Position numbers and translations under genes: made by a program
From: Mycoplasmatota bacterium
GTDB lineage: Bacteria; Bacillota_I; Bacilli_A; RF39; UBA660
Assembly: GCA_022771205.1 (NCBI GenBank)
Contig: JALFCF010000005.1
Span: 90,399 to 154,398 of the forward strand
DNA length: 64,000 nt
Direction of reading: 5' to 3'
Part shown: piece after piece, positions 1 to 26,121 of the stretch
How positions within the stretch are numbered: the first letter of the stretch is position 1
How the letters are laid out: each line of letters begins with the position of its first letter
Notes under the pieces: generated by a model
Database searches by the model: none
Told to the model about the DNA's origin: nothing
What the model saw: only the letters and a program-made list of their open reading frames with translations

Positions 1-214
1 TGCCTAATACTCCATAACCACATCCCATATCCAGAATTTTGCCTCCAACCTCTTCTTGCGGGATTACTTCAAGAAGAAGTCTACTGCCAAAATCCAAACC
101 GTCTTTCGAAAACACACCATTATCGGTTAAAAATTTAAAATGTTGATTTAAAACCACACATGTGGTTTCTTTTATATCGCTAGGTAACTGCTCGTTCGTA
201 AAATAATGCCCCAT
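1..214 (-). CDS. SAM-dependent methyltransferase, YbxB/RsmC-like (3' part beyond window edge)
   Basis: ATG at 214..212 behind an AGAGGGG SD. The translation [50 protein letters not shown]...[13 protein letters not shown] carries the VFS-x-D-x-G and DxGCGxG motifs of the small methyltransferase that follows rplL in Bacillus. It is absent from the ORF track because there is no in-window stop. Confidence 0.5.
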
Positions 215-344
215 CTTATCCCCTCTAAACAAAAAAGAAGGAGAAAACTTGTACATTCCAATAAGTTTTCTCCCTTTCGTAAACATATAATACACGAAAT
301 GTGATGTTTTGTCAAATAATTTTTTAAATTTTGACAAAATTTTA

Positions 345-1058
345 CTAATAATTTCCTGTTTCCTGCAATAACGTTGCTAAATCATAAAGGTTTCCATCTT
401 CATCCTGTGCTAATATAGTAACACTACTACCCATTTGTGATAAAGAATTAGCAGAATAAAATTTAACAATATTTGAAATTCCAGATAAAGTTCCATATGA
501 TTTTAAATTTTCATGATCAGTAGAATAAGCTTTTTTTAATGGTAAATATTGAACAGTACCGTCTTCCAACAAAAATAACAATGTATCACCAGAAACATCT
601 TGTCCAATACCACCAAAGAAAATATCAACTACCTTCTGTTCAAATACTATCTCATGTGGCTCATAAGTATAATCATCATTAGAAGTAACCCAACCAAGTC
701 TATAATTTTGACTAATCAAATAATGATTAATAGATACAGTAACTTTGGTCTGACTACTATCTAAATAAATATTAGTACCGGAAGCATGAGATGGAACAGT
801 TAATGTATAGCCTTCAGCTGAAGCATTTACAACTTTACTAGAATCAAAAATATAATTATTTTTTTCTATTTCAGATGTTGTCTGATCAGATATTTTATTT
901 TTGCTATCCTTACTTTGAACTTTAGCAGATTCAAAAATTAAAATTTTTTGTGAATATAAAACATAAAAAATTCCACAAGATAATACTATTCCTATAAAAA
1001 CGCCTATAATTCCATACAAAAATATATGATTTTTTTTCTTTTGATTATCTACTTCCAT
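345..1058 (-). CDS. hypothetical membrane-anchored (N-terminal TM) extracytoplasmic protein
   Basis: ORF with ATG at 1058 behind an AGGAG SD. A single hydrophobic helix ([24 protein letters not shown]) is followed by a Ser/Thr-rich soluble domain. I recognise no family. Confidence 0.45.
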
Positions 1059-1105
1059 AAACACACTCCTATTCTATAAATAGAATAACATAAATGCCAA
1101 AATTT

Positions 1106-1570
1106 TTATATAGCTTTTTTACAATAATATTCCAAAATTTTTATCAAAAAATTCCATGGACCAATTTTTCTAGTAATACATTTATAATCATCATTAACCA
1201 TATTAAGAATATCATTCAAACTAAAGAATTTAACTTCAGAAACTTCTTCGGTTTGTAACACAATTTCAGATAAATCAACATTTTTAGTAATAATATAGCA
1301 TTCATTAAAATGTTTATTAATATAAGCACTACTAGTATCAATGGAAGTAGAACCAACTAAATATTTAATCTCATCATCACTAACTTCAAGCCTAAGTTCT
1401 TCCCTAACTTCTCTAATTAGCGCTTCTCTACCAAATTCTCCAGTCAAAACATGACCACCAACTGTAACATCCCACATATCAGGCCACCGTTTCTTATTAC
1501 AACTACGCCTTTGCAACAATATATCACCTTCATTATTAATGATAAAAGCATATACTGCTCTATGCCACAA
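1106..1570 (-). CDS. NUDIX hydrolase (YfcD-like); conserved N-terminus interrupted by an in-frame TAA, so possibly a pseudogene
   Basis: The Nudix box GGHVLTGEFGREALIREVREELRLE is present. The ORF as tracked starts at TTG. The upstream in-frame sequence encodes M-E-stop-KFDVLNEWGEFTGKIATKSQCHKEGLWHRAV, which is the conserved family N-terminus. Confidence 0.6.
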   Translation of the reverse strand: MWHRAVYAFIINNEGDILLQRRSCNKKRWPDMWDVTVGGHVLTGEFGREALIREVREELRLEVSDDEIKYLVGSTSIDTSSAYINKHFNECYIITKNVDLSEIVLQTEEVSEVKFFSLNDILNMVNDDYKCITRKIGPWNFLIKILEYYCKKAI

Positions 1571-1696
1571 TCCTTCTTTATGACATTGACTTTTTGTTGC
1601 AATTTTACCAGTAAATTCTCCCCATTCATTTAATACATCAAATTTTTATTCCATAATACCATCTCTATAATTAATACAATTTTAACATAAGCAGTC

Positions 1697-1725
1697 AAAA
1701 AAAAAGAAGTTAATTACTTAACTTC
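1697..1725 (-). terminator. intrinsic terminator after rplL
   Basis: Hairpin GAAGTTAA-TTAC-TTAACTTC overlapping the rplL stop codon, followed on the minus strand by a 9-nt U run. Confidence 0.5.
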
Positions 1726-2082
1726 TACAGTAGCTCCAGCTTCTTCAAGCTTAGCTTTAATTTCATCAGCTTCAGTAGTAGAAATGTTTTCTTTAACAGC
1801 ACCATTGTTGTCAACGATATCTTTAGATTCTTTTAATCCTAATCCAGTGATTTCTTTAACAACTTTGATAACAGCAACTTTAGCAGCTCCAGCATCAGCG
1901 ATAGATACTGTAACAGTACTTGGTGCAGCATCAGCAGCAGCTCCAGCAGCAGGTGCAGCAACAGCTACAGCAGATGGATCAACACCAAATTCTTCTTTCA
2001 TTGCATCTACTAATTCTTTAATTTCTAATAAATTCATTTCTTTTAAACTACTGATAAAATCTTCTTTAGTTAATTTAGCCAT
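1714..2082 (-). CDS. rplL: 50S ribosomal protein L7/L12
   Basis: [34 protein letters not shown]..., a typical L7/L12 with an Ala-rich hinge. Confidence 0.92.
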
Positions 2083-2116
2083 TTTATTTCCTCCTTATTT
2101 TATATTTACTTTATTA

Positions 2117-2611
2117 TTAATTCTCTTCTTTTTGTTGACTATATAAGTCTAAAGCGATTGCTAAATCTCTTGGAATAGCCATCATACCACCAGCAAGCAT
2201 AGTAAGTAATCCTTCTCTTGATGGTATAGTAGCATATTCAGCTAATTTAGCTTGATCTGCTTTTTCTCCATCTACAATCCCTACTTTTAAAACTAATGCT
2301 GGATGATCTTTAGCAAACTCTGACAATACCTTAATTGGTGCAATTTGATCTTCACCAAAAGCAAATGCACTAGGTCCGTTTAATGATTCATTTAAATCAA
2401 TATCTAAATCATTAAATGCACGAGCCATCAAAGTATTTTTATATACTTTATAATCTGAATTAGATTCTCTTAATTTAACACGTAATTCTTTTGCTTCACT
2501 ATCAGTAATACCACGATAATCGAATAAGACAATAGTTTTAGCATTTTGAACACGTTCCTTAATTTCATCTATAACTACTTGCTTTTGCTTTAAGATTGCT
2601 TCACTTGCCAT
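2117..2611 (-). CDS. rplJ: 50S ribosomal protein L10
   Basis: L10 homology. Start corrected to ATG at 2611 (MASEAILKQKQ...) behind an AAGGAGG SD; the 17 codons before it in the ORF track are leader read-through. Confidence 0.85.
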   Translation of the reverse strand: MASEAILKQKQVVIDEIKERVQNAKTIVLFDYRGITDSEAKELRVKLRESNSDYKVYKNTLMARAFNDLDIDLNESLNGPSAFAFGEDQIAPIKVLSEFAKDHPALVLKVGIVDGEKADQAKLAEYATIPSREGLLTMLAGGMMAIPRDLAIALDLYSQQKEEN

Positions 2612-2769
2612 CAAAACACCTCCTTCATATTTAGGGATGCCATAAAAAAGGTTCTCGAGCAACCGAGAACCTTCTTATATTCACTTAAGATTAAGTCCTC
2701 GGTAGGATTTATTTTTGTACCTACTGTCTATGGCACCTACAAATTGTCTTTATTATACCCTATAACTTA
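2612..2769 (-). promoter_or_regulatory. rplJ (L10) leader with attenuator-like hairpin
   Basis: 158-nt untranslated gap between rplA and rplJ contains the hairpin GGTTCTCGGTTGCTCGAGAACC followed by a U run. Its position matches the autoregulatory L10(L12)4 leader of Firmicutes. Confidence 0.4.
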
Positions 2770-3465
2770 CTATTTGTCAAAATTATTTTCAACTTTAATT
2801 CCAGGACCCATAGTTGAAGCTATAGAAATACTCTTAACATAATCACCTTTTACTGTTGCTGGCTTAACTCTTAAAATAGCTGATACGAAAGCATTTAAGT
2901 TTTCCATCAAATCTTCTTCAGAGAATGAAACCTTACCAATAACTCCGTGAATAATTCCGAAACTATCAGCACGATATTCAACACGTCCAGCTTTAACTTC
3001 TTGAACAGCTTTAGCAACATCTAAAGTAACAGTTCCAGTTTTAGGGTTAGGCATTAATCCTTTTGGTCCTAAAACTCTACCTAATTTACCAAGAAGAGGC
3101 ATCATATCAGGAGTAGCAATCATAGTATCAAAATCGAACCAATTTTCTTTTTCGATTTTTTCTAACATATCAACATCTCCAACATAATCAGCACCAGCTT
3201 CTTTTGCTTGATTAGCCTTTTCTCCTTTTGCAATAACTAAAACTTTTGTAGTTTTACCAGTTCCTTTAGGAAGTACAATAGCACCTCTTAATTGTTGGTC
3301 AGCTTTTTTAGTATCAATATTTAATCTGATAGCAACTTCAACTGTACCATCAAAAGAACTAGTAGAAGTTTCTTTAACTAACTTAACAGCTTCTTCTTTA
3401 GTATATGCTTTATTACGTTCTACTTTAGACATAGCTTCTGTATATTTCTTACTTCTCTTTTTCAT
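2770..3465 (-). CDS. rplA: 50S ribosomal protein L1
   Basis: [26 protein letters not shown]..., L1 family. Confidence 0.9.
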
Positions 3466-3532
3466 CTTTATTCCTCCTTACGTGGTAATAGCGGTTAAAA
3501 CCTTCCACATAGGTATAACCTACATAGAACAA

Positions 3533-3970
3533 TTACTTATCTGTATAACCAGGGATTGAAATACCCATATTTTTAGCAGTACCAGCAACAATCTTCATTG
3601 CAGCTTCTACATCATAAGCATTTAAATCTGGTAATTTGATCTCAGCAATTTCTCTTAATTGATCTTCAGTTAATGTAGCAACAACTTCATTAGCTCCTTT
3701 AACTGCACCTTTATTGATTTTTGCATATTTTTTAAGTAAAAATGCAACTGGTGGAGTTTTAATTACAAAATCAAAACTTCTATCATCATAAATTGAAATT
3801 TCTACTGGTAAAATATCTCCCATCTTATCTCTAGTAGCATCATTATACTTAGTACAAAAATCTTGTAAATTAATTCCTGCAGGTCCTAAAACTGTTCCAA
3901 CTGGTGGAGCTGGTGTAGCTTTTCCTGCTGGGATTTGTAATTTAATCTTCTTTATTGCTTCCTTTGCCAC
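3533..3970 (-). CDS. rplK: 50S ribosomal protein L11
   Basis: L11 homology (KLQIPAGKATPAPPVGTVLGPAGIN). Start set to the second GTG at 3970, 9 nt after AGGAGG; the first GTG abuts the SD. Confidence 0.88.
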   Translation of the reverse strand: MAKEAIKKIKLQIPAGKATPAPPVGTVLGPAGINLQDFCTKYNDATRDKMGDILPVEISIYDDRSFDFVIKTPPVAFLLKKYAKINKGAVKGANEVVATLTEDQLREIAEIKLPDLNAYDVEAAMKIVAGTAKNMGISIPGYTDK

Positions 3971-4122
3971 GAAAAACACCTCCTATAATTTTAGTTTTCG
4001 CGAGTGGTCCAAATAGCTTGATTCCCGCTTTCATAAATGCAAACCATGCTTCCCACTAAATCTATATTAATTTCAATATAGCCCCTAAATAATAACATAT
4101 AAATTATATTTTTGCAACTATT

Positions 4123-4656
4123 TTATGCTTTTTGAATTTGATTTAATTCAACTTCTACAGAAGTCTCTTGTCCAAACAAATCAACAAGCAACATAACTTT
4201 TTGATTTGGAACATCAACACTATCAATCTTACCAAACATTCCATTAAATGGTCCGTCAACAATTTTAACAGTAGCACCCTCTACTAAATCAGTATCAACA
4301 TCCATACGACTAATTCCCATATTACCAAGAATTTTATCAACTTCATATGGTTGTAAAGGAGTAGGCTTAGCACCTTTACCACTAGATCCAATGAATCCTG
4401 TTACACCAGGTGTATTACGAACAACATACCAAGCTTCATCTGTCATAACCATTTCAACCAGAATATAACCAGGAAACATCTTTTTTACTTTTTCTTTACG
4501 TACACCATCTTTATCTTCAATGACTTTTTCTTCAGGAATAACAACTCTAAAAATATAATCTTGCATATCCATAGATTCAGCACGCATTTCCAATTTTTCT
4601 TTTACCTTATTCTCATGTCCAGAATAAGTATTAACAACATACCATTGTTTATCCAT
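4123..4656 (-). CDS. nusG: transcription termination/antitermination factor NusG
   Basis: NGN and KOW domains (WYVVNTYSGHENKVKEKLE ... GATVKIVDGPFNGMFGKI). Confidence 0.9.
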   Translation of the reverse strand: MDKQWYVVNTYSGHENKVKEKLEMRAESMDMQDYIFRVVIPEEKVIEDKDGVRKEKVKKMFPGYILVEMVMTDEAWYVVRNTPGVTGFIGSSGKGAKPTPLQPYEVDKILGNMGISRMDVDTDLVEGATVKIVDGPFNGMFGKIDSVDVPNQKVMLLVDLFGQETSVEVELNQIQKA

Positions 4657-4670
4657 AATTAAAACTCCTT

Positions 4671-5009
4671 TTATCTAAATAATGATTGAACTAATGCAAA
4701 AATAATATCAATGACGTAAAAAAATAAAGAACAAAAAACGATAAATAAAACAGTAGCAACAGAATATTTAAGCATATCTTTTTTTGTTGGCCAATGAACT
4801 TTTTTTGTTTCTGATTTCACACCATGGCAAAAAATACGAAATCTTACCCATAAGCTTTTCTTTTCTTCAGAAGAAGATTTAACCAAAGTATCTTTATGGT
4901 TTTCTTTTTTCTTACTATTTTTGCTTTGCTTGTTTTTTTCATTTTTATGAAACTGAGTTTCATCAATTTTATAGTTTTCTACTTCTTTTCTTTTTCTAAC
5001 TTCAGCCAT
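4671..5009 (-). CDS. secE: preprotein translocase subunit SecE with Lys/Glu-rich N-terminal extension
   Basis: C-terminal KKVHWPTKKDMLKYSVATVLFIVFCSLFFYVIDIIF matches the SecE TM core. Its position upstream of nusG is the expected one. Confidence 0.65.
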   Translation of the reverse strand: MAEVRKRKEVENYKIDETQFHKNEKNKQSKNSKKKENHKDTLVKSSSEEKKSLWVRFRIFCHGVKSETKKVHWPTKKDMLKYSVATVLFIVFCSLFFYVIDIIFALVQSLFR

Positions 5010-5110
5010 ATTTCACCATTCCTATTTTTTATCAAAATAAAAACACTTTCCGTGTTCACCATTAAAATAGCATAAACACTAGAAAATGTCAACAATTAAA
5101 TAAAATTATA

Positions 5111-5953
5111 TTATCTAAATAAATAAGATAAAAACAAAATAACAAAACCTAATACAAACACTAATATTGGATAGATTAAAGCCCTAGCAAAAGCAGCTTC
5201 TTTTTTTACTAAACTAGCATAAATAAGTTCATTAGCCTCTTCATTTTGTGGAAGAAAATCTTCTGCAGTATAAGCAGAACCATTAGTCTTAACTAATCTT
5301 TTTCCACTACTATTATTTTCTCCAGAAGAAACTTCTTTTTCTAAATTTTGTAAATCTCTTTTCTTACGTTCACCAACATAAGCACTATAATAAACAGATG
5401 CACCCTTTTCAATGATGCCAGAATAATACGGAACATCTTCGAGAGGCAAAAAAATTGTAAATTGTTGAAAATTATCCTTAATAGCAGGTATTGTATTCAT
5501 TGTAAAATGTTGCAAACATTTGGCATAAAGACCAATATGTAAAACAGATGCCATAAAGATATTATCACGAACAACTTGCTTCTGTTGAGAAATATCATAT
5601 GGTAATGGTGCTAATTCCTGAAATTGAATTTGTCTAATTGAATGATTTAATAATGATATTCTATCAAGAGCAAAAGAGGAGATATAATACCCTTGATCAT
5701 GAATATATTTCATAGCAATATCCATATTAACAAACAAATTCTGTAACTGATTATTAGTACGATAACTCTGCAACCATTCATTCAAAGTAATTGAATCAAT
5801 CTCTTTATGACGAAATGGAATAATTTTTGATGACTTTAAATTTTTGAAACTATCATCTGAAGAAAAAGATTGATCACCATTTACCCCATCAAAATAAGGA
5901 ACAGTTGGAATCTGTTCTTTTGTATTTACTCGCAATTGCTCCTGTCCTATCAT
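5111..5953 (-). CDS. hypothetical protein with C-terminal TM anchor, immediately downstream of sigH
   Basis: 280-aa ORF that ends in the hydrophobic helix LIYPILVFVLGFVILFLSYLF. It occupies the slot where Bacillus has yacP/rpmGB. I recognise no family. Confidence 0.5.
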   Translation of the reverse strand: MIGQEQLRVNTKEQIPTVPYFDGVNGDQSFSSDDSFKNLKSSKIIPFRHKEIDSITLNEWLQSYRTNNQLQNLFVNMDIAMKYIHDQGYYISSFALDRISLLNHSIRQIQFQELAPLPYDISQQKQVVRDNIFMASVLHIGLYAKCLQHFTMNTIPAIKDNFQQFTIFLPLEDVPYYSGIIEKGASVYYSAYVGERKKRDLQNLEKEVSSGENNSSGKRLVKTNGSAYTAEDFLPQNEEANELIYASLVKKEAAFARALIYPILVFVLGFVILFLSYLFR

Positions 5954-5997
5954 ATTCTATTCACCTATTATCATTTTAAAACAAACATACATTTTTT

Positions 5998-6597
5998 TCA
6001 ATTTAAATTATAGTTTTCTATTACTTTTTTCAAAAATTTTCGAGCTTTACAAATTTTAGATTCAACAGAAGAAAGATTTAAATCTAAAAGTTCTGCAATT
6101 TCCTTATTAGAAAAACCATTATATCTCATTTCAAAAACACATCTAGTTTCTAGATCTAACATATAAGACGATAAAAAAATACACTCGATTAATTCCTTAG
6201 AAGTAGAATTACAAAATTCTCCAAAAAAAGTATGATCTGGAATAATATTTAAAGAATAATCACTATCAGAAATAGAAAAATTTAAATTTTGATGTTTTAG
6301 TGCAGAAAGGGATCTACAATAAGTTCTAATAGTTCTTTCAATACATACAGTAGCAAATGTATAAAATATAGTATTATTATCATTACGATAATTAACGATT
6401 GCACTATTTAATCCAATATATCCCTCTTGTATCAAATCTTGATATTCCGCACCACATCGACTAGCAAAATTAAAATATTTACTAGCAATTGATTTAATGA
6501 TAGGTAAATACTTTTGATATAAAATATCATAACTGACATCCATATTTTCACTAATCAAATATAATAACTCATAATCATTAACATTTTTATAATCCAA
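5998..6597 (-). CDS. sigH: SigH-like sigma-70 family factor (region 2 + region 4)
   Basis: YQDLIQEGYIGLNSAIVNY (region 2) and IAELLDLNLSSVESKICKARKFLKK (region 4 HTH). It sits in the conserved cysS-mrnC-rlmB-sigH-secE-nusG position. Confidence 0.7.
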   Translation of the reverse strand: MDYKNVNDYELLYLISENMDVSYDILYQKYLPIIKSIASKYFNFASRCGAEYQDLIQEGYIGLNSAIVNYRNDNNTIFYTFATVCIERTIRTYCRSLSALKHQNLNFSISDSDYSLNIIPDHTFFGEFCNSTSKELIECIFLSSYMLDLETRCVFEMRYNGFSNKEIAELLDLNLSSVESKICKARKFLKKVIENYNLN

Positions 6598-6605
6598 AAT
6601 AACCT

Positions 6606-7304
6606 CTACTTTCTATTTCGGATTACCTCATATATCATAATTCCACTAGCAACAGATGCATTTAAGCTATTAGTTCTCCCATACATTGGAATTTTTGCAA
6701 TAAAGTCACACTTTTTTCTTACTAAATTTGAAATTCCAGAACCCTCATTACCGATAACTAAAGCTATTTTCCCAGAATAATCGATAGTACGATAATCAGC
6801 ACTATCTTCTAATGCTGTTCCAACTACCCAGAAGTTTTGCTTTTTCAAATAATCAATAGTAGAAGATAAATTTGCAACCTGAGAAATTTTCATAGAATCA
6901 AGAGTTCCTACACTAGTCTTCATCACAGTAGCAGTAACGCCTACTTGCCTATCTTTTGGAATAATAATACCATCCACTCCAGCAGCTTCACAGGTTCTAA
7001 TGATTGCACCAAAATTATGTGGGTCTTCTAAATGATCTAAAATCACCAAAAAAGAAGCTTCTTCATTGACAATAGACATTAATGGATAATACTGGTAATC
7101 TCGAACATATAAAATTATACCTTGATGAACACCTTCTGCCAAACGATCAATTTCCTTTTTTGACTTAATAAAAACAGGTATTTTACTACTTTCTAATAAA
7201 GAAAGAATTTTTTTGTCATCAAATCCATCTTGCAATAACACTTTTTGAACCTTTTTAGGATTTTTTAACATTTCTAAAGCAACATTTCTACCATATACTA
7301 ACAT
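6606..7304 (-). CDS. rlmB: 23S rRNA (Gm2251) 2'-O-methyltransferase, TrmH/SpoU family
   Basis: MLVYGRNVALEMLKN N-terminus and the SpoU methylase motifs (VLDHLEDPHNFGAIIRT, LVIGNEGSGIS). Confidence 0.75.
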   Translation of the reverse strand: MLVYGRNVALEMLKNPKKVQKVLLQDGFDDKKILSLLESSKIPVFIKSKKEIDRLAEGVHQGIILYVRDYQYYPLMSIVNEEASFLVILDHLEDPHNFGAIIRTCEAAGVDGIIIPKDRQVGVTATVMKTSVGTLDSMKISQVANLSSTIDYLKKQNFWVVGTALEDSADYRTIDYSGKIALVIGNEGSGISNLVRKKCDFIAKIPMYGRTNSLNASVASGIMIYEVIRNRK

Positions 7305-7711
7305 ATATTATCCTCCAAAATAAAATTCATAATTTCATCAATTCTTTCTTTATTATTTTCCATATCCAGATAGCCAATTAATGCTTCTAATCCAGTTGCA
7401 TATTTATAAGTTACAATATCACAACTTTTTGGATGAGATGTAGTTTTATAATTTCTAGCCCTTTTTACAATACTTATCTCTCCATCTGATAAAAAGTTAG
7501 AATTCATCATTTTTTTCAAAAAAGTTGCTTGACTTTTAGCACTAACGTATTTTACAGCTTGTTTCTGTAATTCATCTACATGAGTATATCCTCGACCAAT
7601 CAAAAACTTGCGCACATAATTTTCATAAATAGTATCACCAAGATAAGCAAGTACTAAAGAATTAACACCTATTGTATTCAAAATAATCACCACCACTAAT
7701 ATAAAAATCAT
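7298..7711 (-). CDS. mrnC: Mini-ribonuclease 3
   Basis: NSLVLAYLGDTIYENYVRKFL RNase III-like signature; about 137 aa; located between cysS and rlmB. Confidence 0.7.
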   Translation of the reverse strand: MIFILVVVIILNTIGVNSLVLAYLGDTIYENYVRKFLIGRGYTHVDELQKQAVKYVSAKSQATFLKKMMNSNFLSDGEISIVKRARNYKTTSHPKSCDIVTYKYATGLEALIGYLDMENNKERIDEIMNFILEDNIC

Positions 7712-7795
7712 ATAAAAAACATCACTTCAAACTGTTTATAACAACAAAAGAAATATTCTTTAATCATCCAAATAAGGCATACTCCTTATGCCTTA

Positions 7796-9184
7796 TTATA
7801 GAAGTTCATACGTAGTTCCTTCTCTACTATCTACTAAACGAATTCCCTCTTGTAACAAATTATCTCGAATAGCATCCGCTAAAGAAAAATCTTTATTTTT
7901 TTTAGCCTCTGCTCTTTTTTCAATTTGCTCTAATATATATTTTTCATTGGCTGCTGACTTTTTTACTTGAATCAAATCCAAAGATAATACTTGATCAAAT
8001 TTTTTAATTATAGCAAGTTTACTTTTACCAGAAAGATTGTTATCTTTTAAAGCTTCATACAAAACAGAAAGTGCATTAGCAGTATTCAAGTCATCTTCTA
8101 GCTCTAAAACAAACTTATCACAATAGCTAGCTATTAAAATATCATTTCGCTCTCCATCATCATTTATAGAAGAAATACGGTTACGTAATTTCTTCAAAGT
8201 AGTATAAGCTTGATCTAAAGCTTCATAAGAAAAAACTAATTGTTTTCTATAATGAGAATTTAAACACATAAAACGAAAAGCTAATGGATCATAACCTTTA
8301 TCTTTTAATGCAGTAACAGTTAAAATTGCTCCATGAGACTTGCTCATCTTTCCTGTTTCATCTAGTAAATGTTCATTATGAAACCAATATTTACACCAAG
8401 GATGCCCCAAATAAGCTTCACTTTGTGCTATTTCATTAGTATGATGTGGAAAAATATTGTCAACACCACCACCATGAATATCAAGATACTCACCTAAATA
8501 TTTAATGGAAATACCACTACATTCAATATGCCAACCAGGATATCCTCGTCCCCAGGGAGAATCCCATAATAACTCATGATTTTCAAACTTGCTAGTAGTA
8601 AACCATAAAACAAAATCCGCTTGATTTTTCTTGTTGTTATCTTCTTCTACACCTTCCCTAGCTCCAACAACCATATTATCTTCTTGATGATTTGTTAATA
8701 CATAATAATCAGGCAACTTTGTAGTATCAAAATAAACATTTCCACCAGATAAATAAGCATATTTTTTTTCTATCAAAGTAGAAATAATTTTAATATATTC
8801 ATCAATGTTTTGTGTAGCAGGCGAAACAATCTCTGGCATTTTACAATTGACTAATTTAAAATCTTCAAAAAACGCATCAGTATAAAATTTTGCTATTTCT
8901 AGAGCAGATTTATGTTCTCTTTTTCTAGCAACTTCCATCTTATCTTCACCAGAATCTGAATCACTAGTCAAATGTCCAACATCTGTAATATTCATAGCGC
9001 GAACTACATCATAACCAAGAAGACGTAAAGTTTTGTCCAACACATCATGACCTATATAATTACGAATATTTCCAATATGAGCATAATGATAAACGGTAGG
9101 CCCACATGTATACATTTTTACTTTTCCCTCTTCATAAGGAACAAAATCTTCTATTTTTCTAGTTAAAGTATTATAAAGTTTCAT
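7796..9184 (-). CDS. cysS: cysteine--tRNA ligase
   Basis: Class I HIGH (HIGN) and KMSKS motifs, Cys-binding CGPTVY. Confidence 0.92.
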   Translation of the reverse strand: MKLYNTLTRKIEDFVPYEEGKVKMYTCGPTVYHYAHIGNIRNYIGHDVLDKTLRLLGYDVVRAMNITDVGHLTSDSDSGEDKMEVARKREHKSALEIAKFYTDAFFEDFKLVNCKMPEIVSPATQNIDEYIKIISTLIEKKYAYLSGGNVYFDTTKLPDYYVLTNHQEDNMVVGAREGVEEDNNKKNQADFVLWFTTSKFENHELLWDSPWGRGYPGWHIECSGISIKYLGEYLDIHGGGVDNIFPHHTNEIAQSEAYLGHPWCKYWFHNEHLLDETGKMSKSHGAILTVTALKDKGYDPLAFRFMCLNSHYRKQLVFSYEALDQAYTTLKKLRNRISSINDDGERNDILIASYCDKFVLELEDDLNTANALSVLYEALKDNNLSGKSKLAIIKKFDQVLSLDLIQVKKSAANEKYILEQIEKRAEAKKNKDFSLADAIRDNLLQEGIRLVDSREGTTYELL

Positions 9185-9236
9185 AAAATCACCTACTACT
9201 AGTATATCATACAGAAAATAGAAAAAACACAGTATT

Positions 9237-11462
9237 TTACTGATAAACTGTATTCAAATCAATATATTCTAATAATTTATCAACCTTTCTCGCACCAAAA
9301 TTAGAGTAATCACAATTATCTTTCACGTATTTACATATTTTTTTCTTCCTATCCAATTCAAGTTTAGGAAATTTTTGTTCTACTTTTTGCATAATTATTT
9401 TATTAATAGTGGCTGCCGAAAAAGGTAAAAAATGTAAAACCAAGTCTATGCGATTAACAAGTTCCGAACCAAAAAATTCCCTTAAATCATTTTCAATCAA
9501 ATCTTTACTATTCTCTAAAAAACCAATTCCTTCTCTATTACTTCCCAAATTAGAAGTCATAAAGATAATAACATTAGAAAAATCCACAGAATCTCCATAA
9601 GATGTAGTCATAACCCCATCGTCTAAAACTTGTAAAAAAAGCTTTAAAACACTTGGATTTGCTTTTTCTATTTCATCTAATAGCAAAACAGCATAAGAGT
9701 GTATTTTTATTCTTTCCAAAATTGTATTCCTATCATCATAACCAACATAACCAGGAGGAGAACCAATTATTTTAGATATAGAAGTAGCATCTTTATACTC
9801 ACTCATATCTAATTTTATAAAAGCTTCTTTCGGATAAAGTAAATCGGCAAATTTACGTACTAATAAAGTTTTACCTAACCCACTTTTCCCAACAATAAGA
9901 AAACATTTCGACGCTTTTTTATTTAAGTTTTTACAAAATACAGATTTAGTCAAACTAGTAATAGCTTCTTCCTGCCCAACAACTGTTTTCTGTAACTCCC
10001 TCTTTAAAGATTCAGAATTTAATGACAAAATTTTTTTAATAGGTATCTTAGTTTTAGAATAAATAACATCATAAACAGTATCTATAGATAAAATTGGTTT
10101 AATATTACTTTGTGTTTGAATCAGAAGATTATTAATTTTGGATTGTAAAAAAGCCTCTCTTTCCCGTAAATATGTAGCTCTTTTAAAATCATGATCAACA
10201 ATAGATTTATTTTTTTCATCAATCAAATTGGTAAGCTCTAATTGAAGATTGTGAATTTTTTCATTTTCTAATGTATTCATACTAATTGTCTTTGAACAAG
10301 ATTCGTCTAATAAATCCAATGCTTTATCTGGTTGTTTTCCACTAGATATATATCTTTCTGATAAATCAGCTATAGAAAATAAAATTTCATCGGTTAATAT
10401 AACACCATGATAATTTTCATATATTTCCTTGACATTCAATAAAATAGATTTTACATTTTCTAAATCTGCCTCCATAACAATTACTTTTTGAAATCTACGA
10501 TCAAAAGCTTTATCACCTTCCAAAAACTTCATATATTCATGTTTCGTAGTTGCTCCGATTACCTTAATTTTACCTCTAGCTAAATATGGTTTTAAAATAT
10601 TGGAAGCATCTATTGCTCCTTCAGCTCCCCCAGCACCAATAATAGTATGAATTTCATCTATAAATAAAATGATATTAGAAACACTCTCTAATTCATCTAT
10701 CATCTTATTAATTCTCTCCTCAAACTCTCCACGATATTTAGTACCTGCAACTAAAGAAGAAATAGAAACACTTAAAACCCTCATATTTTTAAGTTCATTA
10801 GGAACTAAACCTAAAACTATTCTTCTGGCTAATTCCTCTACTAAAGCAGTTTTACCTACTCCCGCATCACCTATAAGTAAAGGATTACTTTTTTTTCTTC
10901 GAAGTAAAATTTCAATAATATTACAAATTTCTTCATCTCTTCCAATCACAGGATCAAAGTCGCCATTTTTTGCTGCTTGTGTAAAATCAGTAGAAAACTC
11001 TTCTATAGTTAATTTACTAAACGTATTTTTTCCTTCACATACAAGATGACTAGAAAATTGTTCATATAAATTATCTAAATCTATATTCATTCCCATCATA
11101 ATTCTATTCGCAACACCTTCTCCTTCTTCTAACAGCGACAAAAATAATTGTTCCACAGTAACATCCTTATTTTCATCTTTACTATCTAAAATAGCATTTT
11201 CAATAATCTTTTTTAATAAAGGAGTATATAGAAACCATTTAGAAATTTTTCTTCCAACTCCTATAACTTCTATAAGCTTATTTTTAAATGATGAATAAGT
11301 AATACCATTTTGTTCTAAAAAAGATAAAAATTTTTTATCAGAATAATGCAAAATAGACAACAATAAATGCTCACTACTAACATAAGGATGCTTTAATTCT
11401 TGCATCTCTTTTTTGGACATAATTAATATTTTTTGGGCTTCTTCCGTGAATTTCGAAAACAT
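9237..11462 (-). CDS. clpC: ATP-dependent Clp protease ATP-binding subunit ClpC-like (Clp-N repeats + two AAA+ modules)
   Basis: Start corrected to MFSKFTEEAQKIL (ATG at 11462 behind an AGGAGA SD). D1 Walker A is GDAGVGKT; D2 is GKSGLGKT; sensor motifs are present. No ctsR/mcsA/mcsB lies upstream. Confidence 0.8.
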   Translation of the reverse strand: MFSKFTEEAQKILIMSKKEMQELKHPYVSSEHLLLSILHYSDKKFLSFLEQNGITYSSFKNKLIEVIGVGRKISKWFLYTPLLKKIIENAILDSKDENKDVTVEQLFLSLLEEGEGVANRIMMGMNIDLDNLYEQFSSHLVCEGKNTFSKLTIEEFSTDFTQAAKNGDFDPVIGRDEEICNIIEILLRRKKSNPLLIGDAGVGKTALVEELARRIVLGLVPNELKNMRVLSVSISSLVAGTKYRGEFEERINKMIDELESVSNIILFIDEIHTIIGAGGAEGAIDASNILKPYLARGKIKVIGATTKHEYMKFLEGDKAFDRRFQKVIVMEADLENVKSILLNVKEIYENYHGVILTDEILFSIADLSERYISSGKQPDKALDLLDESCSKTISMNTLENEKIHNLQLELTNLIDEKNKSIVDHDFKRATYLREREAFLQSKINNLLIQTQSNIKPILSIDTVYDVIYSKTKIPIKKILSLNSESLKRELQKTVVGQEEAITSLTKSVFCKNLNKKASKCFLIVGKSGLGKTLLVRKFADLLYPKEAFIKLDMSEYKDATSISKIIGSPPGYVGYDDRNTILERIKIHSYAVLLLDEIEKANPSVLKLFLQVLDDGVMTTSYGDSVDFSNVIIFMTSNLGSNREGIGFLENSKDLIENDLREFFGSELVNRIDLVLHFLPFSAATINKIIMQKVEQKFPKLELDRKKKICKYVKDNCDYSNFGARKVDKLLEYIDLNTVYQ

Positions 11463-11537
11463 AATATCATCTCCTATATTTATTGTAAAAATAAGAAGAA
11501 AGAGTTTCAAGAAATAAAGTACCCAAAAAATAGACAA

Positions 11538-11562
11538 AAAAAGAGCCCTTAGACTCTTCTTA
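11538..11562 (-). terminator. intrinsic terminator after the transporter gene
   Basis: On the minus strand, AAGAG-TCTAAGGG-CTCTT hairpin followed by TTTTTTT. Confidence 0.4.
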
Positions 11563-13086
11563 CTAAATTAAAATTAAAATTGTAAATACGATTAATAATA
11601 CAACTAATAATTCTAAAACTAATTTCCAAATTGCTTTAAACCATTTAGAATATGGAATCTTTAAATAAGATAACATACCCATTAAAATCAAACTAGTTGG
11701 GGCAACTAACATAGTTAAACCATAAGCTGCTTGATATACAACTGCCATAATTGGATAATTATCAGCATTTGTAACAAGACTAGATAAATATGGTAAAGAA
11801 CTTTGGAAAGCATAAGCGATATCTCCATTAAAGAATGCAGATAAAATTGCTACTATAAAAGTAGTAAATACATTAAATCCATCTGTAATTCCTAAAATAG
11901 CTTTATAAATTACTAATTGGAATGGATGATAAGTTGTAATTACTAAAATAGTATAAATCATAATAGCAATAACAGCTGGTCCTAACGCACGCTTAGCACC
12001 TTGAACAAAACCATCTAGTACCTCGTCAAATTTAACTTTATAAATCAAAGCTAAAATAAACATAAATACCATTAATACGACAACCATATCGACTAAAGTC
12101 CAAGATCCAAATGCATTAACTGTTCCTAACAATTTGCCAAATAAAGCAAATCCAAACACTTCAAATCCAGTAACAGCAGTAGTAGCATCATCCATAGCAT
12201 TAAGTCCAAATGCACCAGACCAAGAAATAAATGCTAATACTAAAATAATGAAGATAATTGATAAAACAATAGCTAATGGCCAAACAATATGTTTCTTACC
12301 AGCTACTATCGTAGGAACATATAAATCCTCTTCTGAATCTTCTGCTGTAACTACAACTACTTCTTCTTCTCTTACAGCTGCTTTTGTATTTTTTGAAGAT
12401 TTAGCCTTAGTAGTTTTAGCAGGTTTTTTCTCTTCTTTTGCAGTAACTTTTTTTACTTTTGCTTTTTTCTCACTCTTTTGTTGTTTTCTAATATATAAAA
12501 CTGTATTTACAATCAACAGTACTACTCCTAAAAATAATACAATACATTTAGGCAACATTCCATTAGTAAATTCAGTTCCTAAAATACTTGAAAAAATACC
12601 AGTATTATTATATCCAAAAGTAGTACCTAGCATACCCATCATAGTAGAACCAACTATAGCAAGTGCTGCTACAATCTTATCAAATCCCATAAGTAAAATT
12701 AAAGATACTAACATAGGATAAAATATAATTAATCCAAGTTGTAAACCACAAATAGATGTAAGAAGAGCAATAATTACCATCATAATAGATAAAACAACTA
12801 CTTCTTTACCTTTAAATGCAGATCTTAATTTATCCAACATCGTACGATATGCACCAATTTTATTTAACACACCGTAAAATCCACCAACAGCTAATATAAA
12901 GGCTGCAATATAGCCAAAATATGATACTGCAGTAACAGGATAATTGAATAAATCAAAAAGTCCCATCTGAACGCGTCCTTGATCAACGTAACTACCTGAA
13001 TAATAAGCAGCTGGTAAAATCCAAGTAAGTAACATTAATACTAATAATGTAACAAGAACGACTTTAAATGTATTATGTTTCTTCAT
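11563..13086 (-). CDS. polytopic membrane transporter, YfcC/DcuC-like anion permease
   Basis: At least 10 predicted TM helices. Start corrected to ATG at 13086 (MKKHNTFKVV) behind GGGAGG. Contains a roughly 55-aa Lys-rich hydrophilic insertion. Confidence 0.45.
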   Translation of the reverse strand: MKKHNTFKVVLVTLLVLMLLTWILPAAYYSGSYVDQGRVQMGLFDLFNYPVTAVSYFGYIAAFILAVGGFYGVLNKIGAYRTMLDKLRSAFKGKEVVVLSIMMVIIALLTSICGLQLGLIIFYPMLVSLILLMGFDKIVAALAIVGSTMMGMLGTTFGYNNTGIFSSILGTEFTNGMLPKCIVLFLGVVLLIVNTVLYIRKQQKSEKKAKVKKVTAKEEKKPAKTTKAKSSKNTKAAVREEEVVVVTAEDSEEDLYVPTIVAGKKHIVWPLAIVLSIIFIILVLAFISWSGAFGLNAMDDATTAVTGFEVFGFALFGKLLGTVNAFGSWTLVDMVVVLMVFMFILALIYKVKFDEVLDGFVQGAKRALGPAVIAIMIYTILVITTYHPFQLVIYKAILGITDGFNVFTTFIVAILSAFFNGDIAYAFQSSLPYLSSLVTNADNYPIMAVVYQAAYGLTMLVAPTSLILMGMLSYLKIPYSKWFKAIWKLVLELLVVLLIVFTILILI

Positions 13087-20224: not shown

Positions 20225-20524
20225 TTATTCTTCAGGAATTTTCAAAATAAATTCTCCATCTTTAGAATAAAGATATTTCTCTCTAGCATATCTAGCTATA
20301 TAATCCGGATCTTGCAGTTTATTAGCATCAACCTTTAATTTTTTCTCTTTATTTTTTAAAGAAATCAATTCTTTTTCCAATTCTTTTTTTTCTTGATATT
20401 TATCATAAATTTCTATCCAATACTTACCAATAGTAAAAGTAGTAATACCTATAACAAAGACAGAGGTTAATCCTAAAAAAAGCATTCTTCTACGCCTTTT
20501 TGTTTTCGCCTTAGATTTAGCCAT
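20225..20524 (-). CDS. divIC: septum formation initiator family (DivIC/FtsB-like)
   Basis: Basic N-terminus, single TM, then a coiled coil (ELEKELISLKNKEKKL). Position yabP-yabQ-divIC. Start ATG at 20524 behind GGTGG. Confidence 0.55.
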   Translation of the reverse strand: MAKSKAKTKRRRRMLFLGLTSVFVIGITTFTIGKYWIEIYDKYQEKKELEKELISLKNKEKKLKVDANKLQDPDYIARYAREKYLYSKDGEFILKIPEE

Positions 20525-20608
20525 ATTACCACCTACTCTTTCACAATAAATTATAAACCAGATTAAAGTATAGAGCAACAATACCCCAAAAAAAAGAGAA
20601 ATTTGACA

Positions 20609-21604: not shown

Positions 21605-21817
21605 TTAAGGTAAAATTTCTAAACTTTGAGTCAAAATATCACTATAACTAAATGTTTTTATTTTATTATTTTCAGTTTCAATAGTAAATATTGCTGGATA
21701 TAAATCAACAATCACACCATGAAATTCATCTACTTGATTTCGTGAACCATGAAAGCGAAAAGAGCACTTTATACCTTGATTTTGTTCTACAACTTTCTTT
21801 ATATTATCAATCATCAT
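21605..21817 (-). CDS. veg: Veg-family small protein
   Basis: FRFHGSRNQVDEFHGVIVDLYPAIFTIE...FSYSDILT resembles Veg. Confidence 0.65.
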   Translation of the reverse strand: MMIDNIKKVVEQNQGIKCSFRFHGSRNQVDEFHGVIVDLYPAIFTIETENNKIKTFSYSDILTQSLEILP

Positions 21818-22578
21818 CTTGGATACCCCACATACATAGTACCATTAGTGATAATTCCTCCCATTCCATCTTTACCATACTTTGTTTTTTCTAAGATGTG
21901 AATTAAATCTATGCTTTTATTTCTATCTGCTAATGCTAAAGAACAGGCTAAAATTGCTGGATCCAACGCATGAATATTAATTCTTTTAGGACTTGAAGCA
22001 AAATTAGCACCTGCTTTTATTAATTCTTCATAATTAGACTGACAAGCCCCCGCTATAATAATTAACTTATCTTGACTTTTTTCATATTTCCTAGCTTCTC
22101 TTACAGCTTCAATAAAATTCAAAGAGTTTTGATAATCTCCTCTATTTTTCTTTAAATAAGCATCATGACCAGTTATCACAACTATATCAGGCTGAAATTC
22201 ATCTAATAATCCATGAATTTTTCTAGGTATTTCTATCTCAGAAACAGTAAGACCATTAGCTTTTACGTTCATTTCCTTATAAAAATTCATACATCTTTTT
22301 AAATAATCACTATCCCCATCAATATGTAAAATCTTACCAGGTAAATAAAAATACTGACTCCTATCCATTTCTAAACTTCTTAAACTTTTTTCCACTATCT
22401 GTTTGTCAGAATCCAAAGAAACATTAGTCTTAACTAAATCAGATAACAAACTATCTGCATAAAGTCTTAAATCAGCACCTTTTAAAAATGCAATATTTCC
22501 ATCAATAGAAACTATTTTAAAAACGATATCATGATTATGAGAAATCCTTGTAACATAATCACCTTCATGAAAATCCAT
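21814..22578 (-). CDS. yabG: sporulation-specific protease YabG
   Basis: N-terminus MDFHEGDYVTRISHNHDIVFKIVSIDGNIAFLKG..LRLYADS is YabG-like. Located between ksgA and veg. Confidence 0.65.
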   Translation of the reverse strand: MDFHEGDYVTRISHNHDIVFKIVSIDGNIAFLKGADLRLYADSLLSDLVKTNVSLDSDKQIVEKSLRSLEMDRSQYFYLPGKILHIDGDSDYLKRCMNFYKEMNVKANGLTVSEIEIPRKIHGLLDEFQPDIVVITGHDAYLKKNRGDYQNSLNFIEAVREARKYEKSQDKLIIIAGACQSNYEELIKAGANFASSPKRINIHALDPAILACSLALADRNKSIDLIHILEKTKYGKDGMGGIITNGTMYVGYPR

Positions 22579-23472: not shown

Positions 23473-24159
23473 TTAAATAATTTCAATGTCTTCGTCACTT
23501 AACAAGCTCTTTTTCAATTTTCTGATTTTGATTAATTTACGTACCCTAATTACTTCTGTCATAATTAAATATAAAACAGGTAAAGCAATACAAAGAATCC
23601 ATCCAAAATAAGTAGATAAAAACCATCTAACATAACCCAACTTTGGAATTCTAAATAAAACTTTCCCATAAACGTTTTCTTCTCTAACCAAAATAGCATC
23701 AGCAACATTATTGTTGTCACCTTTAGTACGATACAATAAAGTTCCATCATTAGCTTCCACTATACCTATAATTCGATGAGTAACAACTTTCCCAGCATAA
23801 TAGGAATCTGTAGATAAATAACTAATAATATCACCTTGTTTTAACTTTTTTGGTGAAACTCTAGCAATAATAATGGCATCTTGAACATTAATTGTAGGAA
23901 CCATACTTGGACTTACTATAACATACGCATCAAACAGAGGTGGTTTATTTTCCCCAGAACGTAGATTATATAATAAATCTACAAAATAGAAAATGAAAAA
24001 AAGAAAAATAAGGGCTAATAAAAGAAAAACAACATACAAAAACACTTTAGTTACAAAATGAAAAAAGAATTGTATGACTTCTTTTATAGAAACAACATCA
24101 TCATGATTTGTATCAAAATATTGTTTCATAATAAGCCTCCTATCTATCATTATCTCCAT
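23473..24159 (-). CDS. sipW: ER/archaeal-type signal peptidase I (S26B, SipW-like) with extra N- and C-terminal TM segments
   Basis: VSPSMVPTI catalytic Ser region and THRIIG...TKGDNNNVAD, a Sec11/SipW-type motif. C-terminal TM helix. Confidence 0.65.
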   Translation of the reverse strand: MEIMIDRRLIMKQYFDTNHDDVVSIKEVIQFFFHFVTKVFLYVVFLLLALIFLFFIFYFVDLLYNLRSGENKPPLFDAYVIVSPSMVPTINVQDAIIIARVSPKKLKQGDIISYLSTDSYYAGKVVTHRIIGIVEANDGTLLYRTKGDNNNVADAILVREENVYGKVLFRIPKLGYVRWFLSTYFGWILCIALPVLYLIMTEVIRVRKLIKIRKLKKSLLSDEDIEII

Positions 24160-24221
24160 GATAACACGTGAAAATCAAAAAAACTAGTTTTAAGCAGAAA
24201 AAAAAGAAGAGTTGACATCCT

Positions 24222-24845
24222 CTACATAGCTTTTGCTACAACATTCAATTTAATATTAAAATCACGACTAATAGAGTCAATTACAGTATCCTGAGCAACC
24301 CACATACGCAATCTAAAACTATCTTTTATTTCTTTATCATGACTTGTCATATTAGATAACGTTCCCGAATATAATATCATACTTCCCTTCTTGCTACCCA
24401 AAAAACTATTATTCTCTAACGGAATAAAAGGCTGTGGATTTTGAGTAATTAATGTAGATTTATATGCATTATCTTCGTACTTTTCCAAATAAAATCTTAC
24501 ATCAGAATTAGAAAGAGTCGGTTTATCAGTTTTAATTTTTTCTACATAAATTTCATAATTAAGCGTTGTTTGTGCAGAAAGCATAGATTGTACTTCAAAA
24601 TCATAGACATTATTATCATCTAACATCATTCCATCTACATCAGAAGCAGGCATAGCATTTTCCATAGATAAAGCACCGTTTTCATTTTTCAATTTTAAAG
24701 ATATAGTTCCAGTAGAAATACCATTTATTTGAGAATCTTCAAAAACTGTAACAAAAGTAGCATAAGATACACCAACAAATGCAATAATTAAAACAGCAAT
24801 GCTAATAATAGATAATAAGATTTGTTTTGACTCAGTTTGTATCAT
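24222..24845 (-). CDS. TasA/camelysin-like secreted protein with SipW-cognate signal peptide (paralog 1)
   Basis: Start ATG at 24845 behind GGAGG. After the signal peptide and SYA, TFVTVFEDSQINGISTGTISLKL matches the A-x-F-x-D-x-E-x-S...GTLDL SipW-cognate motif. C-terminal FRLRMW block. Confidence 0.55.
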   Translation of the reverse strand: MIQTESKQILLSIISIAVLIIAFVGVSYATFVTVFEDSQINGISTGTISLKLKNENGALSMENAMPASDVDGMMLDDNNVYDFEVQSMLSAQTTLNYEIYVEKIKTDKPTLSNSDVRFYLEKYEDNAYKSTLITQNPQPFIPLENNSFLGSKKGSMILYSGTLSNMTSHDKEIKDSFRLRMWVAQDTVIDSISRDFNIKLNVVAKAM

Positions 24846-24916
24846 AAAAAAGCCTCCATATACTCCATGTATATTATGATATATATCACTCAAAACATAA
24901 AAGACTTCAAAGAAGT

Positions 24917-25510
24917 CTAATTTGCTTGTCCAAACACTTTAACTTTAACAGAATAAACTCCAGAAGGATCTACTACAGCACCTTCTCTAATCCACATTCT
25001 CAATCTATAATTAACTACCTTTTCAGATGAAAGTGTTACTTTATCTACAACCATAGATTTAGCTGGACTACCTAAAGATGTCTTTTTCTTACTTGGCATA
25101 AAGATTTTGGGATCATCAACCTTAGCATAACTACCACTATTCTGTTTTTCTAAATAGATTACAACATCATTATCAGAAATAGTAGATTCTGAATCTTTGA
25201 TTAAAGCAATTTCGTATTGTACTGACGAATCTTCATCAAGTTGAGAAGAAACTGCAAAATCAAAATAACTACCTTCTGTTCGTAAAGCTTTACCAACTTC
25301 ATTAGACATAGGAGTCAAATTTGCAAGTTTAAAATCAGCAGTTGATGTTTTATAATTCATTGTAACAACACTATTTTTAATGACTTCATTAACATTATTC
25401 TTTTGATGTTTAAAAAACATTATAAACGAAAAAATAACAACTAAAATTAAAATTACACTAATCCCTAAAATTATAAATAAAATATTCTTTGTTTTATAAC
25501 TATTATCCAT
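24917..25510 (-). CDS. diverged TasA-like paralog 2 (N-terminal TM anchor)
   Basis: Shares the ...L-x-N-x-x-P/MS..VG, YEI, V-x-x-YLE and YRLRMW blocks with paralog 1. Follows it after a 23-nt gap. Confidence 0.45.
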   Translation of the reverse strand: MDNSYKTKNILFIILGISVILILVVIFSFIMFFKHQKNNVNEVIKNSVVTMNYKTSTADFKLANLTPMSNEVGKALRTEGSYFDFAVSSQLDEDSSVQYEIALIKDSESTISDNDVVIYLEKQNSGSYAKVDDPKIFMPSKKKTSLGSPAKSMVVDKVTLSSEKVVNYRLRMWIREGAVVDPSGVYSVKVKVFGQAN

Positions 25511-25518
25511 ATTTCCTC

Positions 25519-26121
25519 CTAATCCATTATTCGAACATAAAGATTTACTTTAAAATTACGTATTTCTGTAGTAATAGGATAAGTATCAGCCAACCACATA
25601 CGTAACCTAAAAGTTTTCACTTCATTCTCTTTTAACGTCCCTGAATAAATTTTTTTACCAGCAGGATTTGTTCTGGCAACTTTCAAATCATGATAAGTAG
25701 GAATTTTATCTCGATAATCATCGAATGGTAAATCATTATGACCATCTGTTAAATAAACTTTTACATAATCGCTAGGAAGTTCCAAAGAAACTCCAGTTTG
25801 AATAGCGTAAATTTCATAATCAATAGATTTCATCCCATCAAAATTAGCAGAAACAGTAAATTCACTATAACCATATTTTGTCTGATTAGGAGTAAAAGTT
25901 AACTGTTTACCAACAACATCTGTAATCGGCATAGAATTATCTACTACAAGATCAGATGAATTATCAGAATAAGACAAAATTAATGTTGCATTTTTAATAT
26001 CTTGCTTATTATTATAGAAATAAAGAAATAAGCAAAATATTAAAGAAAAAATAGCAATCAAAACTAAAACAACTGAAATAAAAAGTGTATTGTTATGAGT
26101 TAATTTTTTCAAATGTTTCAT
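25519..26121 (-). CDS. diverged TasA-like paralog 3 (N-terminal TM anchor)
   Basis: Shares the DNSMPITDVVG, YEIY, VKVYL and FRLRMW blocks with paralogs 1 and 2. Separated from paralog 2 by an 8-nt gap. Confidence 0.45.
   Translation of the reverse strand: MKHLKKLTHNNTLFISVVLVLIAIFSLIFCLFLYFYNNKQDIKNATLILSYSDNSSDLVVDNSMPITDVVGKQLTFTPNQTKYGYSEFTVSANFDGMKSIDYEIYAIQTGVSLELPSDYVKVYLTDGHNDLPFDDYRDKIPTYHDLKVARTNPAGKKIYSGTLKENEVKTFRLRMWLADTYPITTEIRNFKVNLYVRIMD

Follow-up and report, generated by a model that had tools for sequence, protein, structure and literature searches.

Non-catalytic kinase C-lobes that stand alone are known from the KIND domain (kinase non-catalytic C-lobe domain) of metazoan Spir, PTPN13 and very-KIND, where they serve as protein-interaction modules. 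KIND domains occur in animals and their close relatives as parts of cytosolic multidomain proteins, and to our knowledge the architecture of a bare docking C-lobe has so far been associated with this animal domain. In Firmicutes, EssB/YukC of the type VIIb secretion system crosses the membrane once and carries a cytoplasmic, degenerate kinase fold with a scaffold function. EssB, which is encoded in T7SS loci, combines a complete, bilobal pseudokinase domain with an extracellular one. YabT of B. subtilis, encoded beside tilS, is a complete and active Ser/Thr kinase of the Hanks type, which has a transmembrane helix at the C-terminus and no sensor domain.

In Firmicutes, sporulation or competence is initiated by sigma factors of the SigH/ComX type, which are controlled post-translationally by proteolysis and adaptors. 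We know of no description of a dedicated anti-sigma factor for this class. Literature on bacterial KIND domains, pseudokinase anti-sigma factors, RF39 sigma factors and Spo0H anti-sigma factors was surveyed; it neither described the protein family presented here nor mentioned a bacterial C-lobe-only pseudokinase, a pseudokinase anti-sigma factor or a regulator encoded beside sigH.

The stretch of 64 kb analyzed here, referred to as the window, encodes a 280-aa protein (termed X in the following) directly downstream of a sigma factor gene in the position of sigH. X is very probably a tail-anchored, cytoplasm-facing, dead kinase C-lobe. It resembles KIND in consisting of an isolated C-lobe without N-lobe and catalytic residues, and KIND is its closest counterpart in architecture; nevertheless, X is bacterial, tail-anchored and without a Pfam match at E<=1, including KIND and Pkinase, so that the resemblance is an architectural one. 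With regard to the cellular setting, X is comparable to EssB/YukC as a membrane protein with a cytoplasmic degenerate kinase fold, but it comprises only the C-lobe, has no extracellular part, is located beside sigH and gives no Pfam YukC match. Likewise, it shares membrane anchoring and the missing sensor domain with YabT, whereas N-lobe and catalytic residues are absent; no kinase gene is found beside tilS in the window. The RsiW/RseA-type anti-sigma factors (class I ASD) offer a further parallel, namely a cytoplasmic domain N-terminal to one transmembrane helix, encoded right downstream of a sigma factor. Moreover, the alanine-containing motif at the membrane edge of X recalls the cryptic degrons which are exposed in RsiW/RseA-type anti-sigma factors after site-2 cleavage. 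In contrast to these proteins, X features no ASD or zinc-binding fold, virtually no extracytoplasmic segment and a promoter of its own, and the sigma factor beside it is of the SigH type instead of the ECF type.

The gene and its distribution

The open reading frame of X extends over positions 5111-5953 of the minus strand, with an ATG at 5953 according to the ORF call. A ribosome-binding site, AGGTGA (5961-5966, minus strand), is read directly from the sequence 7 nt before the ATG, and ATAGGTGA at this site is kept across related loci. Together with the homologues and the conserved family described below, this establishes the predicted frame as a real gene. The upstream gene (5998-6597, minus strand) encodes the proposed partner of X, a sigma-70 family factor of 199 aa that comprises regions 2 and 4; it starts 8 nt past the rlmB stop, a position matching that of sigH in B. 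subtilis. The distance to X was measured as 44 nt on the same strand, exactly as initially annotated. Downstream of X, a gap of 101 nt leads to secE (4671-5009, minus strand), followed by nusG, rplK, rplA, the L10 leader, rplJ and rplL. As this gap is too short to accommodate L33, and as tblastn with two L33 queries gave no match in the window and none in 72 related loci, the reported absence of L33 at this place is confirmed. An Rfam scan of positions 1-12000 detected the L10 leader alone (RF00557, 56 bits; 2635-2751, minus strand), which is located upstream of rplJ and ordinary; both intergenic regions around X were without a match. The SecE protein comprises 112 aa, with the Pfam SecE match at residues 60-111 and the first 59 residues forming a Lys/Glu-rich extension. 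GC and GC3 of X equal those of the neighboring genes, and horizontal acquisition was rejected due to this native composition. A second copy of X was not found within the window.

A search of 5.8 billion proteins yielded 112 homologues of X, down to 36% identity, all of them without a Pfam domain and without an informative name. Exhaustive HMMER searches of 1.84 billion cluster representatives extended the family to about 130 clusters at 50% identity, and scanning one genome per GTDB species located it in 72 species. All of these are represented by metagenome-assembled genomes of uncultured gut or rumen 'Bacilli', 'Tenericutes' or 'Mycoplasma sp. CAG', with Candidatus Faecimonas as the closest X-bearing relatives in this species scan. 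Faecimonas is listed as Bacilli incertae sedis in the NCBI taxonomy; in GTDB, this is the order RF39. In the searches made, no family member was found outside uncultured gut Bacilli related to Candidatus Faecimonas. Thus, X is a genuine, lineage-wide gene. In one cluster representative (P0134, 461 aa), the C-lobe domain of X forms the N-terminus, while linker and tail anchor are replaced by about 270 residues of unrelated sequence; a fusion and an assembly chimera are both conceivable.

The initial annotation regarded X as family-less. This holds true for Pfam (0 families at E<=1), NCBIfam and PADLOC, none of which gave a match, and for PDB sequences, since chain searches with the single sequence and with the profile produced chance matches only; PHROGs contributed two weak matches over linker and tail. 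At the fold level the designation no longer applies, as the protein-kinase C-lobe is recognized (see below). A defence-system or phage origin was considered and rejected, PADLOC being empty and the PHROGs matches limited to these two. When the 5.8-billion-protein set was searched with the profile, only three further distant members and no Pfam-annotated relatives were obtained, and therefore no link from X to full-length kinases emerged. The family merits a profile of its own in the domain databases.

Architecture and fold of the protein

Four segments can be distinguished in X. Residues 1-52 (5798-5953, minus strand) form a variable N-terminal extension that is predicted to be disordered (pLDDT <50 at residues 1-49). 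In most members, with lengths of 201-245 aa, this extension is missing or strongly shortened, and the protein usually starts 5-20 residues ahead of the following domain. Residues 53-210 (5324-5797, minus strand) constitute a protein-kinase C-lobe-like domain reaching from alphaE to alphaI, in which the catalytic residues are replaced. Residues 211-256 (5186-5323, minus strand) form a charged linker (pLDDT 56-84) with conserved juxtamembrane motifs in the family alignment, i.e., GK.LVK.NG, N237, Y245 and A254-F255 at the membrane edge, the latter being part of an xA[F/Y] motif present in 109/141 members. Residues 257-280 (5114-5185, minus strand) are the C-terminal transmembrane tail anchor: the hydrophobic helix spans about residues 257-279 and is followed by one Arg, and the model places a helix at residues 250-279. 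The single C-terminal transmembrane helix noted from the sequence at the outset was thus found again in X and throughout the family, the hydrophobic window running up to the last residue in 141/141 unique members. An N-terminal signal sequence was found in none of these 141, and the N-terminus of X is hydrophilic. Because of this hydrophobic C-terminal end and the missing signal sequence, X is considered tail-anchored with the remainder in the cytoplasm.

Structure prediction and remote homology searches, which had been suggested along with the initial annotation, led to the protein-kinase C-lobe fold. The predicted structure follows the topology alphaE, beta6-9 and alphaF-alphaI and superimposes on kinase C-lobes, and a fold search with the model returned kinases only. 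The relationship is visible by fold and, weakly, by profile-sequence alignment. For the latter, the X family was compared by hhalign to PKA and to PrkC of B. subtilis; the alignments were statistically weak with P = 0.04 for PKA and 0.01 for PrkC, the register being exactly as expected. The aligned segments are MDIAMKYIHDQGYYISSFALDRISLLN of X and a stretch of 26 letters of PKA. In this register, the catalytic R-D corresponds to S92-S93, Lys168 of PKA to A95 and Asn171 to R98, while the DFG Asp is replaced by E113, a Glu that is non-conserved in the family. Neither an HRDxKxxN catalytic loop nor a DFG motif is conserved in the family alignments. Furthermore, alphaF follows the last strand of the model after only about 4 residues, which means that activation segment and P+1 loop are gone.

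The kinase fold as such would be in line with kinase activity of X, be it on its own or, in a split kinase, together with an N-lobe encoded elsewhere. This is highly improbable. An N-lobe with Gly-rich loop, VAIK Lys and alphaC Glu is missing in X, the first 52 residues being disordered, variable and absent in most members; catalytic Asp, Lys and Asn as well as the DFG Asp are replaced, about 4 residues are left of the activation segment, and no Hanks kinase motif occurs in the 64-kb window. Due to the absence of an N-lobe, the replacement of HRD, Lys, Asn and DFG and the almost complete deletion of the activation segment, X is classified as a non-catalytic, C-lobe-only pseudokinase, which can neither bind ATP nor phosphorylate. 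Homology to an unrelated enzyme family had been named initially as an argument against a role as anti-sigma factor. Formally a resemblance to an enzyme family, the kinases, does exist, but every catalytic element of it is missing.

The invariant core of the family comprises the blocks LF.NMD.AMKYIH..GY...SF and FLP..DVPYY.G.I.RGA.VY, whereas the N-terminus is variable. The second block, the most conserved one, aligns to the alphaG region of kinases, a classical protein-docking surface. Stripped of catalysis, the C-lobe of X is most simply understood as a docking module. Whatever the function of X, the family shows that in bacteria, too, a protein kinase has been reduced to its C-lobe, presumably to serve in docking.

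Transcription units around the gene

At the junction of sigma gene and X, a promoter-like site of the sigma-A type is located at 5973-6001 (minus strand), consisting of TTGAAA, a spacer of 17 nt and TAAAAT with 10/12 consensus matches. The -35 element (6001-5996) includes the TGA stop codon of the sigma gene, and the -10 element (5978-5973) ends 19 nt ahead of the ATG of X. The pattern TTGNNN-17-TANN[AC]T recurs at this junction in 67/71 loci, compared to 3.6+/-1.8 in shuffled controls and 1/70 inside coding sequence. In roughly 30 of the more distant loci (about 32 by inspection), the -35 element TTGTCT is at the same time the 3' arm of a short hairpin that is followed by a T-run. This hairpin, AAGACA...TTGTCT, comes after the sigma stop codon (loci in the range L014-L072, e.g., L044, L047 and L061) and appears to be a terminator-like element. 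In the clade of the window itself, TTGAAA takes the place of the hairpin arm and the junction is free of a hairpin, so that read-through from rlmB-sigma into X is also conceivable there.

Downstream of X, a terminator-like hairpin with T-run was identified at 5032-5090 (minus strand), the hairpin itself reaching from 5090 to 5042 with a dG of -17.2 kcal/mol (RNAfold). Hairpin and TTTTTATTTT follow X in 61/65 loci with a mean dG of -18. A promoter-like site for secE (TTGACA, N14, TGc, TATTTT; 5064-5092, minus strand) is embedded in the 5' arm and loop of the hairpin and was likewise found in 61/65 loci. Transcripts from this site would be devoid of the 5' arm of the hairpin, with a 5-bp mini-hairpin AACAC-GGAAA-GTGTT remaining before the T-run; judging from this arrangement, the overlap of terminator and promoter could represent an attenuator or leader for secE-nusG.

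Given its own promoter and terminator, X is regarded as a compact transcription unit between the sigma operon and secE-nusG. The initial annotation saw in X a membrane-tethered protein co-transcribed with a sigma factor, i.e., the layout of a sigma/anti-sigma pair. The adjacency underlying this view is upheld (71/71 and 8/8 loci, see below). The co-transcription has to be revised: read-through may occur in the clade of the window, but the sigma-A-like promoter site in 67/71 loci and the hairpin in about 30 loci signify that the expression of both genes is not obligatorily coupled, in contrast to the stoichiometric co-transcription typical of classic sigma/anti-sigma operons, which speaks against the anti-sigma reading.

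The separate transcription unit with conserved promoter and strong terminator, as well as the terminator-like hairpin between both genes in about 30 more distant loci, are also what would be expected if X were an independent membrane scaffold. Its dead C-lobe would then dock another cytoplasmic partner, e.g., a Hanks kinase, a phosphatase or a division or sporulation protein, and the proximity to the sigma gene would reflect the inertia of a stable gene block. The evidence from gene order, which bears on this explanation in both directions, is given in the following.

Linkage and possible co-evolution with the sigma factor

Presence of X beside the sigma gene in relatives, proposed at the outset as a check, was determined in the related loci. 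Both genes are adjacent in 71/71 genome loci possessing the two of them and in 8/8 further metagenome contigs that were looked up for sigma or X homologues (22-45% identity). Even for the most divergent X members (22-24% identity) the pair is kept. Thus, X is an obligate neighbor of the SigH-type sigma factor in the loci examined. The gap between both genes amounts to 30-104 nt in 70/71 loci, and a gene inserted between them was found in none of the loci examined. The sigma gene follows rlmB in all loci, and the order cysS-mrnC-rlmB-sigma-X-secE-nusG-rplK is preserved in all 72 species loci as far as the contigs extend. Since gene order is strongly conserved over the entire cysS...rplL block, adjacency by itself supports a functional relationship only weakly, and this synteny in every locus suits the scaffold.

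Among the exceptions to this order, every insertion or rearrangement seen is on the secE side, which speaks against mere block inertia. In seven loci (L017, L039, L041, L049, L053, L058 and L069), the gap between X and secE is widened to 0.3-3.9 kb, and in one metagenome lineage (L079) a transposase lies between X and secE. Another metagenome lineage (L075, L076 and L082) features a sigma-X gap of 15 nt and continues with CofD instead of secE-nusG; in L075/L076, WhiA also follows the pair and CofD. The 211-aa neighbor of the sigma factor in this lineage matches the X family profile with E = 7e-31, which means that the sigma-X pair persists where CofD-WhiA replaces secE-nusG. Together with the fact that family members were found nowhere else, this argues for a specific association and against X as an independent scaffold.

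Some further details of these loci were recorded. In L075/L076 (4001-7177) and L082, the CofD protein is YvcK-like and genes for Zn_peptidase_2 and DUF1287 are inserted upstream; besides WhiA, ClpP is found downstream of the pair in L075/L076. In L053 (approximately 5674-6294) and L058 (approximately 6670-7299), a gene for a polytopic membrane protein of 206-209 aa is inserted right after X. By eye, its EExxxR, FxxxH and HxxxN motifs indicate a putative CPBP/Abi-type intramembrane protease, and this insert may be of interest in case X is subject to proteolytic control.

Sigma factor and X evolve by far the fastest within the block, and at matched rates: their mean Kimura distances amount to 1.16 and 1.01, respectively, compared to 0.10 for nusG. 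Their distance matrices correlate with r = 0.58, the best value of all gene pairs in the block. After regressing out cysS, nusG and rplK, a partial r of 0.45 remained, while the next-best pairs reached 0.38 and 0.36. The mirror-tree excess is modest, and it is supportive rather than decisive for co-evolution of the pair; a signal only modestly above background would be compatible with the scaffold as well. Binding of X to the sigma factor is nevertheless the best explanation, since the sigma factor is the only consistent genomic associate of X and the pair survives rearrangements which separate X from secE.

Identity of the sigma factor

The sigma factor contains the Pfam domains Sigma70_r2 and r4_2. 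Its best specific NCBIfam models are SigH with 62.6 and 61.2 bits, far below the respective cut-offs of 208 and 294.8. The earlier description as SigH-like is accordingly valid by position and best hit, but not by the curated threshold, about 62 bits being opposed to 208-295. With regard to its biological role, homologues of the sporulation proteins YabG peptidase (21814-22578, minus strand) and SpoVT (29032-29574, minus strand) are encoded in the window, as is a DivIC homologue (20225-20581, minus strand). In a genomic survey, RF39 bacteria were predicted to form spores with atypical regulation (PMC10868615). Based on these homologues and this survey, the sigma factor is probably a Spo0H-like transition-state or sporulation sigma factor and not a pure competence sigma factor.

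Possible modes of action

The preferred reading, which is put forward as tentative, is that X acts as an anti-sigma-like factor binding and sequestering the adjacent sigma factor at the membrane. The dead C-lobe would serve as a protein-docking module, as does the metazoan KIND domain, and its docking partner would be the adjacent sigma factor. X might thereby keep the sigma factor on the inner side of the membrane and out of reach of RNA polymerase until a signal releases it. Such a release could conceivably proceed by proteolysis at the conserved Ala-Phe of the membrane edge or by displacement through another partner. The step controlled in this way may be a SigH-dependent transition-state or sporulation-entry programme; sporulation entry is proposed because the organism carries YabG and SpoVT. 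Sequestration would be the most natural consequence of X binding the sigma factor at the membrane.

Several features of X run counter to a role as anti-sigma factor. Its fold is unlike any known anti-sigma domain and no anti-sigma Pfam family was matched; a recognizable anti-sigma domain of the class I ASD, RsbW/SpoIIAB or FlgM type was found neither with Pfam and NCBIfam nor by fold search. In addition, a tail-anchored protein is left without an extracytoplasmic sensor. In view of the evidence on both sides, the independent membrane scaffold introduced above is nearly as likely as the anti-sigma reading.

Binding to the sigma factor might also have a positive effect. X could act as a membrane stabilizer or adaptor that counteracts Clp-type proteolysis, or deliver the sigma factor to the polymerase, a role analogous to that of ComW for streptococcal ComX. 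This reading can draw on the same linkage and co-evolution as the anti-sigma reading, on the textbook control of SigH/ComX-type sigma factors by proteolysis and adaptors and on a clpC homologue located 3.3 kb upstream. Still, for a transcription factor, being tied to the membrane points more naturally to inhibition, and the Pfam scan revealed no similarity of X to ComW or MecA, which makes a positive partner rather unlikely.

Returning to sequestration by X, a stronger version appears somewhat doubtful at present. In this version, the SigH/ComX class would have in X its first anti-sigma factor, and one of a new structural class, i.e., a tail-anchored, kinase-derived C-lobe-only module resembling a bacterial KIND domain, by which the sigma factor initiating sporulation or competence would be sequestered at the membrane. 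The family would offer a concrete and testable anti-sigma candidate for this class in a widespread uncultured gut order.

A further cluster in the window

Apart from the X locus, the window contains three tandem paralogues of about 200 aa on the minus strand (24222-24893, 24917-25510 and 25519-26121), which are 27-32% identical. Each of them features an N-terminal anchor and the common FRLRMW motif, and a Pfam match was obtained for none. They adjoin a gene for a 228-aa protein with a signal-peptidase-I-like SPSMVPT motif (23473-24159, minus strand). As far as can be told from these motifs and their arrangement, the cluster at 23473-26121 (minus strand) looks like a SipW/TasA-type peptidase-plus-substrates cluster.
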